Shown here piece by piece: positions 28,155 through 32,000 of a stretch of DNA of 32,000 nt. A program made the translations under genes and the position numbers. This stretch comes from an uncultured archaeon. Lineage in GTDB: Archaea; Asgardarchaeota; Jordiarchaeia; Jordiarchaeales; Jordiarchaeaceae. The DNA lies in contig CAZECW010000126.1 of assembly GCA_964510585.1 (NCBI GenBank), positions 1-32,000 on the forward strand, given 5' to 3'. Under the pieces are notes generated by a model. That model was given only the letters and a program-made list of their open reading frames with translations, ran no database searches and was not told the origin of the DNA. Position 1 is the first letter of the stretch. The number at the start of each line of letters is the position of its first letter.

Positions 28155-28230
28155 GGGCGAGTAGTCTAGCGGCTATGACACCGCCTTGACGTGGCGGAGG
28201 TCGCAGGTTCAAATCCTGCCTCGCCCACCA
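28155..28230 (+). tRNA. tRNA-Val(GAC), intronless, CCA encoded
   Basis: GGGCGAG/CTCGCCC, CCGCC-TTGACGT-GGCGG, GCAGG-TTCAAAT-CCTGC. Confidence 0.97.
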
Positions 28231-28252: not shown

Positions 28253-28260
28253 TTTAATAA
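28253..28260 (+). promoter_or_regulatory. TATA box for tRNA-Phe
   Basis: AAAAGA followed by TTTAATAA; predicted start about 28283-28285. Confidence 0.55.
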
Positions 28261-28311
28261 GTTGTGAAAAAAACTTGTTTTTGCCGTCGTCCAAATTCTC
28301 CCAGGATAGGT

Positions 28312-28472
28312 GCCGTCGTAACTATTCACAAAGAATAGCGACAAGCTTAGCCCGGGAGAGCGTCGGATGCTGCCAGAATCCCTGACAGAAGACGAAACTG
28401 AAGATCCGATTGTCGCTGGATGCTGCCAGAATCACTGACAGAAGGCGACTTCAAATCCGGCCGACGGCACCA
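28312..28472 (+). tRNA. tRNA-Phe(GAA), introns at 9/10 (28321-28344), 30/31 (28367-28396), 53/54 (28420-28449), CCA encoded
   Basis: Spliced: GCCGTCG TA GCTT AGCCCGGGA GAGC G TCGGA CTGAAGA TCCGA TTGTC GCTGG TTCAAAT CCGGC CGACGGC ACCA (77 nt). BHB helices GTCG/CGAC, CGTC/GACG, CGCT/GGCG. Confidence 0.92.
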
Positions 28473-31292: not shown

Positions 31293-32000
31293 ATGGCTTG
31301 GGATGTGGTTATTGTAGGTGGCGGTGTTGCTGGTTTGTCTGCGGGTGCTATCCTTGCGAAGGATGGATTTAAAACGCTGGTTTTGGAGGAGAAACTCAGA
31401 GTTGGAGGGAGGGGTAATTCCTTCGAATATAAGAAGGGGTACATTGTTGACTTTGGGATTCATGCTTTGAGGCTTGCAGATAAGGGTGCTGCTGCCAGGG
31501 TTTTTGAGCGGATCGGTGAAAAGTTGGAGATTGTTGAACCTGAGATACAAAAATTGTATTACAAGGATAGTTGGACAGATTTACCCCTGTCTGTTAATAA
31601 GCTTTCAACAACACCTATATTCACCCAAAGGGATAAGGAAGAGTTAGGACCGGCGCTTACACAGATGTTAACGCTTAAGCCAGAAGAGTATTATGATGTT
31701 CCTGTTGAGAAATGGTCGGAAGAAAATGTGAAGAGTGACAATCTTAAATGGTTTTTAAAAGAAATTTTAACCAAACTACTTTTGGTTGCTGCGGATATGG
31801 CGGTGACATCCACTGGGGAACTTTTCGATCTGGTTCAAGTATTTGTCAAAACTGGTAAAGGGGCAGGGTACGCTGTAGGCGGGTGGAAGACAATACTGGA
31901 TAGGCTAACTGAAACCGTAGAGGCTAATGGAGAAGTGAGGGTTGGAACTAAGGCGGAAAAAATTATTGTGAAGAATAATGAAGTCAAAGGAGTGTTAACG
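31293..32000 (+). CDS. FAD-dependent oxidoreductase (phytoene desaturase-like), partial at right edge
   Basis: Hand translation MAWDVVIVGGGVAGLSAGAILAKDGFKTLVLEEKLRVGGR...VDFGIH: GxGxxG and GG motifs. SD GGAGG. Confidence 0.9.
   Translation, partial: MAWDVVIVGGGVAGLSAGAILAKDGFKTLVLEEKLRVGGRGNSFEYKKGYIVDFGIHALRLADKGAAARVFERIGEKLEIVEPEIQKLYYKDSWTDLPLSVNKLSTTPIFTQRDKEELGPALTQMLTLKPEEYYDVPVEKWSEENVKSDNLKWFLKEILTKLLLVAADMAVTSTGELFDLVQVFVKTGKGAGYAVGGWKTILDRLTETVEANGEVRVGTKAEKIIVKNNEVKGVLT

Follow-up and report, generated by a model that had tools for sequence, protein, structure and literature searches.

A window of 32,000 nucleotides (nt) at the start of contig CAZECW010000126.1, part of the 3.78-Mb assembly of an uncultured Asgard archaeon of the Freyarchaeia/Jordiarchaeia (G000), contains a gene for tRNA-Phe(GAA) with an encoded CCA end at positions 28312-28472 of the plus strand. 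Coordinates given without a genome label refer to this window. The gene consists of four exons and three introns of the bulge-helix-bulge (BHB) type, and two of these introns, at tRNA sites 30/31 and 53/54, are near-identical twins. We conclude that the twins are probably true paralogues that arose from an old copying event and were afterward homogenised repeatedly by short-tract gene conversion. This view draws on the observed anatomy of the gene, the competence of its splice motifs, the conservation of the pair among related genomes, and the pattern of similarity within genomes. An earlier interpretation made from the letters of the window (hereafter, the sequence-only reading) had taken the pair for recent copying caught in place. 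Twins are, however, also present in four other genomes and on a further metagenome contig, and their high similarity points to repeated homogenisation and not to youth.

Twin intron 1 occupies positions 28367-28396 and twin intron 2 positions 28420-28449, each being 30 nt long, and the two are identical at 27 of 30 positions. Repeat finding and exon joining agreed with the sequence-only reading on the sites, the coordinates and the identity of the pair, as well as on the nature of the three differences, which fall at position 15 (hairpin loop), position 26 (central BHB helix, on the intron strand) and position 30 (3' bulge). With the exonic GG included, the repeat finder returned a direct repeat of 31 nt, mismatched at 2 positions and spaced by 53 nt. 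A degenerate 29-nt pattern for the twins matched twice in the window, compared with 0 matches in 100 shuffles, and with up to 3 mismatches it detected only the two twins in the whole 3.78-Mb genome. Apart from chance matches of 13-16 nt, neither this pattern search nor blastn-short revealed the twins or the 9/10 intron anywhere else in G000. A scan of G000 for local direct repeats (at least 22 nt, at least 85% identity, 20-200 nt apart) identified the Phe pair as the sole tRNA-type case, the other hits being protein repeats and arrays of clustered regularly interspaced short palindromic repeats (CRISPR).

The splice motifs were evaluated with a rule in which four exon bases pair with intron positions n-5 to n-2, a 3-nt bulge is present on each side, and the cut (indicated by an arrow) follows the second bulge base. 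The intron at site 9/10 (28321-28344, 24 nt), which the sequence-only reading did not mention although both of the introns that it described are real, shows the central helix GTCG/CGAC with 4/4 pairs, bulges TA↓A and AA↓G, and a 6-bp inner hairpin. Both twins also possess an inner hairpin, with a central helix CGTC/GACG (4/4) and bulges GG↓A and AA↓A for twin 1, and a helix CGCT/GGCG (4/4, including one G.U) and bulges GG↓A and AC↓T for twin 2. All Phe introns in G000 and in four other species have four of four central-helix pairs and 3-nt bulges. Joining of the four exons (28312-28320, 28345-28366, 28397-28419 and 28450-28472) yields 77 nt that ARAGORN calls as tRNA-Phe(gaa) with a regular cloverleaf, and the features recognisable by eye are a D-arm, an anticodon loop CTGAAGA, a T-loop TTCAAAT and, ahead of a terminal A and CCA, an acceptor stem of 7 bp (GCCGTCG/CGACGGC). 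A BLAST search with the mature tRNA sequence found no second Phe gene in the whole G000 genome. Because this appears to be the sole Phe gene, the supply of tRNA-Phe must presumably depend on its splicing.

For comparison we examined SQRJ_82 (G001), RPF2 (G003), QZM_A3 (G004) and SRVP19 (G005; complete genome CP147778), together with metagenome alleles on one contig (L053) and at three Phe loci identical to each other (L052, L054 and L055, corresponding to Ga0164310, Ga0164311 and Ga0164318). An exact-pattern scan of species-representative genomes detected the intron pair only in metagenome-assembled genomes of Candidatus Jordarchaeia (RPF2, QZM_A3) and Candidatus Freyarchaeota (SQRJ_82, CP147778). 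Twins are present at both sites in these four genomes and in L053, and are absent as a pair from L052, L054 and L055. The 9/10 intron is kept in five species and is missing from the Ga0164310-type allele, and every sampled allele of the genus-level group carries an intron of the same length at 30/31. Flanking DNA of G000 is 86-91% identical to that of SQRJ_82, RPF2 and QZM_A3, that of SQRJ_82 and QZM_A3 is 97% identical, and comparison with SRVP19 gives ~70% or no alignment. Given that the twins occupy one pair of sites in diverged species, they are very unlikely to be a private recent event and are not an assembly artefact, and the duplication is, as judged from this distribution, older than the divergence of the sampled species of the genus.

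A recent transposition within the gene, private to this genome or strain, guided by the target and followed by one compensatory change, would suit the 90% identity of the twins, the likeness of the targets CGTCGG and CGCTGG, both of which the sequence-only reading gave correctly, and the pairing of A26 with T27 and of G26 with C50. We consider it very improbable, given that the pair stands at the same sites in four species, with flanks 86-91% identical or far less, and in another metagenome lineage, and that a flank divergence of 3-14% and more excludes the relatives being one population. In addition, A at position 26 of twin 1 (GACG) is private to G000, where it replaces a G.U pair opposite T27 with A-U, whereas the 30/31 copy of the relatives retains G at this position, so that no compensation was required. 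The earlier description of A26 as a compensatory adaptation is thus not upheld; the change appears to be a later private refinement that is not needed for the copy to work, because the relatives hold G opposite T27. An assembly duplication, which the sequence-only reading had considered, or inserts that are not introns can be dismissed for practical purposes. Misassembly of metagenome bins can make short direct repeats, but the copies differ at 3 sites, exact excision of the inserts restores a perfect tRNA, and five assemblies made independently of one another show this structure, among them a circular genome that was curated and checked with long reads.

The number of differences between the paralogues is 3 in G000 and 1 each in SQRJ_82 and QZM_A3, whereas the orthologues differ at 5 and 5 positions between G000 and SQRJ_82 and at 2 and 2 positions between SQRJ_82 and QZM_A3. 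In the hot-spring clade, paralogues within a genome (1-3 differences) are closer to each other than are the orthologues of G000 and SQRJ_82 (5 differences). Had the copies evolved independently after the old duplication, the introns within a genome would be expected to be no more alike than the orthologues of distant species, contrary to what is seen here. Positions 7, 12 and 19 show one state in both copies of G000 and SRVP19 and another in both copies of SQRJ_82 and QZM_A3, the change in the two copies being assigned to the branch leading to SQRJ_82, RPF2 and QZM_A3. Both copies carry C at position 13 in SQRJ_82 only, T at position 14 in QZM_A3, and T at position 16 in SRVP19. Positions 12-15 lie within the hairpin loop, in which parallel change is not accounted for by the splice motif. 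For SQRJ_82 and QZM_A3, with two differences in one intron, the probability of the same two arising in the other by chance was estimated as ~1/435 x 1/9 (about 1 in 4000). Gene conversion is indicated because identical changes in loop and stem are found in both copies, lineage by lineage, and we infer that the homogenisation proceeded at the DNA level. The last intron base (A versus C) is the sole difference fixed throughout the hot-spring clade and would mark the edge of the conversion tract.

Several observations weigh against this interpretation. The paralogues differ at 6 positions in RPF2, 5 in SRVP19 and 9 in L053, showing that homogenisation is uneven, with one clade giving the clearest case, and SRVP19 and L053 share an A at position 3 of intron 1, an orthologue-type signal. 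The inference of conversion is based on approximately seven parallel sites, with 30 sites per intron and six twin-bearing genomes. Positions 7 and 19 pair with each other, so structural selection could explain some of the parallelism. Given that no copies of the twins were found in other tRNA genes of G000, nothing can be said on spread from gene to gene. Finally, the allele with an intron at 30/31 only is basal in the best rooted tree described below, but this tree does not reject the alternative placement (p = 0.45 in the approximately unbiased [AU] test). Some of these points would also fit an old duplication without exchange, in which selection, for example on the hairpin or for a bound factor, conserves both copies and the parallel changes are independent and adaptive. 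Under such a scheme, selection could have driven the joint change of the paired positions 7 and 19 (C.A to U.G) in both copies, and the sizeable divergence of the paralogues in RPF2, SRVP19 and L053 would be expected. It is nevertheless rather unlikely in our assessment, in light of the identical parallel changes at loop positions 12-16, which have no pairing role and two of which postdate the split of SQRJ_82 and QZM_A3, as well as of the low chance estimated above for the same two changes in the other copy.

With old copying followed by conversion as the preferred interpretation, the course of events may be sketched as follows. The exon bases preceding the twin sites are CGTC and CGCT, and the intron 3' segment GGCG pairs with either of them, with one G.U in each case; the occupancy of a second site would have been possible for this reason. 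One intron sequence would have come to occupy a second site in tRNA-Phe before the sampled congeneric species split, and the 31-nt direct repeats 53 nt apart would then have repeatedly overwritten each other, resulting in near-identity within a genome and drift between genomes. The proposal of the sequence-only reading that an intragenic copy was guided by target similarity holds in that the introns are paralogues and that GGCG pairs with both targets, but this does not prove guided insertion. The similarity of the targets is best seen as a condition that permits the splicing of a copy. The arrangement would also carry hazards: recombination between the twins, which flank the anticodon-bearing exon 3, would delete this exon, and if the 5' half of intron 1 paired with the 3' half of intron 2, a splice motif that skips it would form. 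Since the gene is single-copy, either outcome would be lethal, and selection together with local folding kinetics presumably keeps the arrangement in place.

In three Atabeyarchaeia genomes (G021, G031 and G041; L008, L011 and L018), tRNA-Phe contains introns at 30/31 and 53/54 plus an intron in the D-arm, but the 30/31 and 53/54 introns are mutually unrelated despite near-identical exon contexts. Exon context does not force similarity, because introns at the same sites in Atabeyarchaeia are unrelated, and the Jordiarchaeia twins appear to be copies and not convergent look-alikes. Similarity of the Atabeyarchaeia introns to the twins did not reach significance (6 tests, lowest p about 0.02 without correction). 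That the sites are the same would mean that both lineages accept introns there, that the introns are ancient and of common origin, or that they were transferred between lineages living together in the same wetland soil. Other Asgard families in which Phe was found with an exon-3 pattern have introns at neither 30/31 nor 53/54, and most of their alleles have a D-arm intron. These findings bear on the possibility that unrelated introns first resided at 30/31 and 53/54 and that one was overwritten by way of the microhomology GG↓A and GGCGA. The unrelated introns of Atabeyarchaeia at exactly both sites, the exon-dictated motifs common to both ends of all these introns, and the conversion clearly active later in the lineage agree with such a replacement. 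Set against this are the absence of both introns from all other sampled Asgard families, the nonsignificant similarity of the Atabeyarchaeia introns to the twins, and the existence of one related allele with an intron at 30/31 only, and we regard replacement as unlikely.

This related allele, of the Ga0164310 type, was detected by an exon-3 scan of metagenome contigs and carries introns at 30/31 (30 nt) and 59/60 (32 nt) but at neither 9/10 nor 53/54. It keeps the Val-Phe synteny and the leader described below. The check for more copies and for single-intron alleles suggested by the sequence-only reading thus yielded none elsewhere in G000, twins in the relatives, and this one metagenome lineage. 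Its 30/31 intron shows only a weak core likeness to the twins (p about 0.06) and is treated as orthologous to twin 1 by position and length, not by sequence. SRVP19 and L053 have all four introns (9/10, 30/31, 53/54 and 59/60), and the hot-spring clade lacks that at 59/60; three introns per tRNA is the maximum cited in Thermoproteales reviews. The 59/60 intron of SRVP19 (L007:1641-1740; tRNA-Phe at ~1547648-1547842) is a 32-nt BHB intron in the T-loop, with helix TTCA/TGAA and a 9-11-bp hairpin. Because two metagenome lineages have a homologue and the hot-spring clade has none, this intron is apparently one that was lost or gained inside the genus. The alleles compared document the gain and loss of single introns of tRNA-Phe among close relatives, whatever the history of the 53/54 intron.

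Whether the intron at 53/54 was gained or lost was approached with trees. A midpoint-rooted tree of a neighbour gene grouped the single-intron lineage with the congeneric genome G002, SRVP19 and L053. A concatenate of three proteins rooted with the sister family f2 (presumably Jordiarchaeaceae; G006-G010) placed the single-intron lineage in a basal position, with the alternative being 1.4 log-likelihood units worse (AU p = 0.45). The 425-amino acid (aa) neighbour gene has no homologue in f2 and hence provides no rooting, and the neighbour encoding a flavin adenine dinucleotide (FAD) oxidoreductase is missing from SRVP19 and G002. We lean slightly toward a gain of 53/54 (and of 9/10) after the Ga0164310-type lineage split off, with 30/31 as the donor, over a precise loss in that lineage. 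G002 has no assembled Phe locus, its contig ending in the neighbouring gene. Patterns for exon 3, for the anticodon region and for the T-arm plus acceptor all failed to locate a tRNA-Phe in f2, their matches being other tRNAs or coding sequence. The FAD-dependent oxidoreductase gene of the window starts at 31293, runs past 32000 and encodes 430 aa; it is 97% identical in SQRJ_82 and QZM_A3 and 85-87% identical in the Ga0164310 lineage, and its orthologue in RPF2 (L068, G003:C27:10700-11833) is a decayed pseudogene with 12 stop codons.

With regard to the splicing machinery, two open reading frames (ORFs) of G000 match the EndA family PF01974 above the curated cut-off. One, with a catalytic-type domain (79.9 bits), is located on the plus strand of the window at 19921-20181, outside the Phe locus and trans-acting, and the other is at G000:C157:27039-27287. 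A single ORF matches the RtcB ligase family PF01139 above the curated cut-off (G000:C58). The two EndA paralogues would be expected to excise the three Phe introns, with RtcB rejoining the exons. The rtcB gene itself contains, at G000:C58:3762-3791, beyond the window, a BHB-type insert of 30 nt that interrupts the motif PD↓AHQGYG and includes an in-frame TGA. Its central helix is CCCG/CGGG with bulges AC↓A and AA↓G, and its excision restores LPDAHQGYGFPIGG. An insert of 29-30 nt is found at this one site in 6/6 genomes of the genus (L084-L089), with covarying hairpin arms. The rtcB insert and Phe twin 2 have in common an in-register 8-mer, AGAATCAC, at positions 9-16, and the two do not co-vary between species.

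Concerted evolution of short repeats by gene conversion is a general phenomenon, with multicopy tRNA and rRNA genes as examples. The twins resemble such cases in that paralogues within a genome are closer than orthologues and that derived states are common to both copies. They differ in the converted unit, which measures only ~31 nt, is contained in one essential gene, and is an intron and not a functional RNA or coding segment. In the literature searched on tRNA introns, concerted evolution and archaea, we found no case of intragenic twin BHB introns evolving in concert.

In Thermoproteales, to which the sequence-only reading had compared the locus, near-identical introns occur at different positions in different tRNAs and have been read as the result of large-scale transposition (Fujishima et al. 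2010, as cited in PMC4090602 and PMC4033280). The mechanism is described in these reviews as unknown and presumably DNA-level, with the BHB motif thought to set the possible targets (PMC4090602, PMC4033280). The host studied here is an Asgard archaeon and thus lies outside Thermoproteales. As in the Thermoproteales families, near-identical BHB introns of a single genome here occupy tRNA positions that differ and are in part non-canonical. Unlike those families, whose copies reside in different tRNAs, both copies here belong to a single gene, the rest of the genome having none; the pair is also old and evolving in concert, for which the two reviews describe no counterpart (PMC4090602, PMC4033280).

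For Freyarchaeia and Atabeyarchaeia, 92-95% of tRNA genes have been reported to contain introns, often several and at non-canonical sites (Valentin-Alvarado et al. 2024, PMC11291895), including the D-arm, with many missed by tRNAscan-SE (PMC11291895; 10.64898/2026.10.13.758758). A recent preprint on intron-rich Asgard tRNAs gives an average of >2 introns per gene and about 30% missed by tRNAscan-SE (Goswami et al. 2026, 10.64898/2026.10.13.758758). Its test for copying, taken over from the work on Thermoproteales, counted only families spanning at least two isotypes and yielded hardly any shared families, 1.5% at 80% identity (10.64898/2026.10.13.758758), and an intragenic pair is therefore outside its design. 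The lineage and the heavily interrupted tRNA genes are the same in our case, but the Phe gene is absent from the published table, which lists for a complete Freyarchaeia genome 38 tRNAs, without Phe, His, Cys and Glu (PMC11291895 Supplementary Data 4). We located the Phe orthologue of SRVP19 at G005:C1:1547618-1547842, between the tabled Val-GAC (1547486-1547561) and Gly-TCC (1548047-1548153) genes. BHB introns, their transposition in Thermoproteales and intron-rich Asgard tRNAs are all known.

The latest census of intron-rich Asgard lineages offers no general route by which introns enter their tRNA genes. The locus described here shows one BHB intron sequence at two sites, apparently still being transferred between them, and it recovers a tRNA-Phe gene overlooked by standard tools and in the published Freyarchaeia list. 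Six twin-bearing genomes and one single-intron allele constitute a comparable system for distinguishing DNA-level from RNA-level copying. It is conceivable, although we consider it doubtful, that the twins are the footprint of a still-active copy-and-paste of BHB introns in Asgard archaea, either as DNA or as excised RNA that is re-inserted and copied back, wherever the four bases upstream of a site can pair with the intron 3' end. Such a process would explain the presence of >2 introns per tRNA gene in the archaea closest to eukaryotes as well as the mini-intron of rtcB, and tRNA-Phe would be the place where the proximity of donor and recipient keeps their kinship visible through conversion.

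The unspliced Phe gene is seen neither by ARAGORN nor by the Rfam tRNA model, both of which report only the conserved upstream neighbour tRNA-Val(GAC) there (28155-28230, plus strand). ARAGORN recognises 9 tRNAs in the entire G000 genome. Its two calls of tRNA-Phe(aaa) proved to be miscalls, that on C104 being tRNA-Thr(TGT) with a D-arm intron and that on C140 not being Phe(GAA). The Val-Phe order is also found in SRVP19, where the Phe orthologue with its leader, from 1547618, directly follows Val-GAC, and in the metagenome Phe alleles a tRNA 3' end likewise lies upstream.

The pre-tRNA leader (28284-28311, plus strand), which is not part of the twin introns, carries a second copy of the 8 nt with which the tRNA begins (GCCGTCGT). 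Comparison of the leader with the start of the tRNA and of the 9/10 intron gives a direct repeat (D2) with 20/28 identical positions and a period of 29 nt, the likeness to the intron start being loose. The leader repeat is kept in five species, and the metagenome allele without the 9/10 intron has a degenerate copy, GCTGTTG, that can pair 7/7 with the 3' acceptor strand by way of two G.U pairs, so that the repeat does not strictly accompany this intron. A TATA-like TTTAATAA is located at 28253-28260, ~24 nt upstream of the leader, and the transcription start is presumptive. A 9-bp inverted repeat (28262-28270/28499-28507), considered as a possible leader-trailer helix, shows no conservation among the relatives and was taken as chance.

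An interpretation of the introns as C/D-box guide RNAs was rejected, in that the hairpin CTGA is not conserved (CTGG in the relatives) and 30 nt is too short. The initiator tRNA-Met gene on the minus strand of the window (23944-24110) also contains two 30-nt introns, with a 1+23+4+2 layout like that of the Phe twins. Its first intron matches Phe twin 1 at 14/30 positions (the ATG start, AATC at 11-14 and AAG at 23-25), which is unconvincing for common descent. The CRISPR-like arrays of G000 are located on C136, C130, C210 and C167 (repeat CTTGCAAAAAGAGTTCCTCAGAAACGAGGATTGAAAG), with a second repeat family on C73, C16 and C134.
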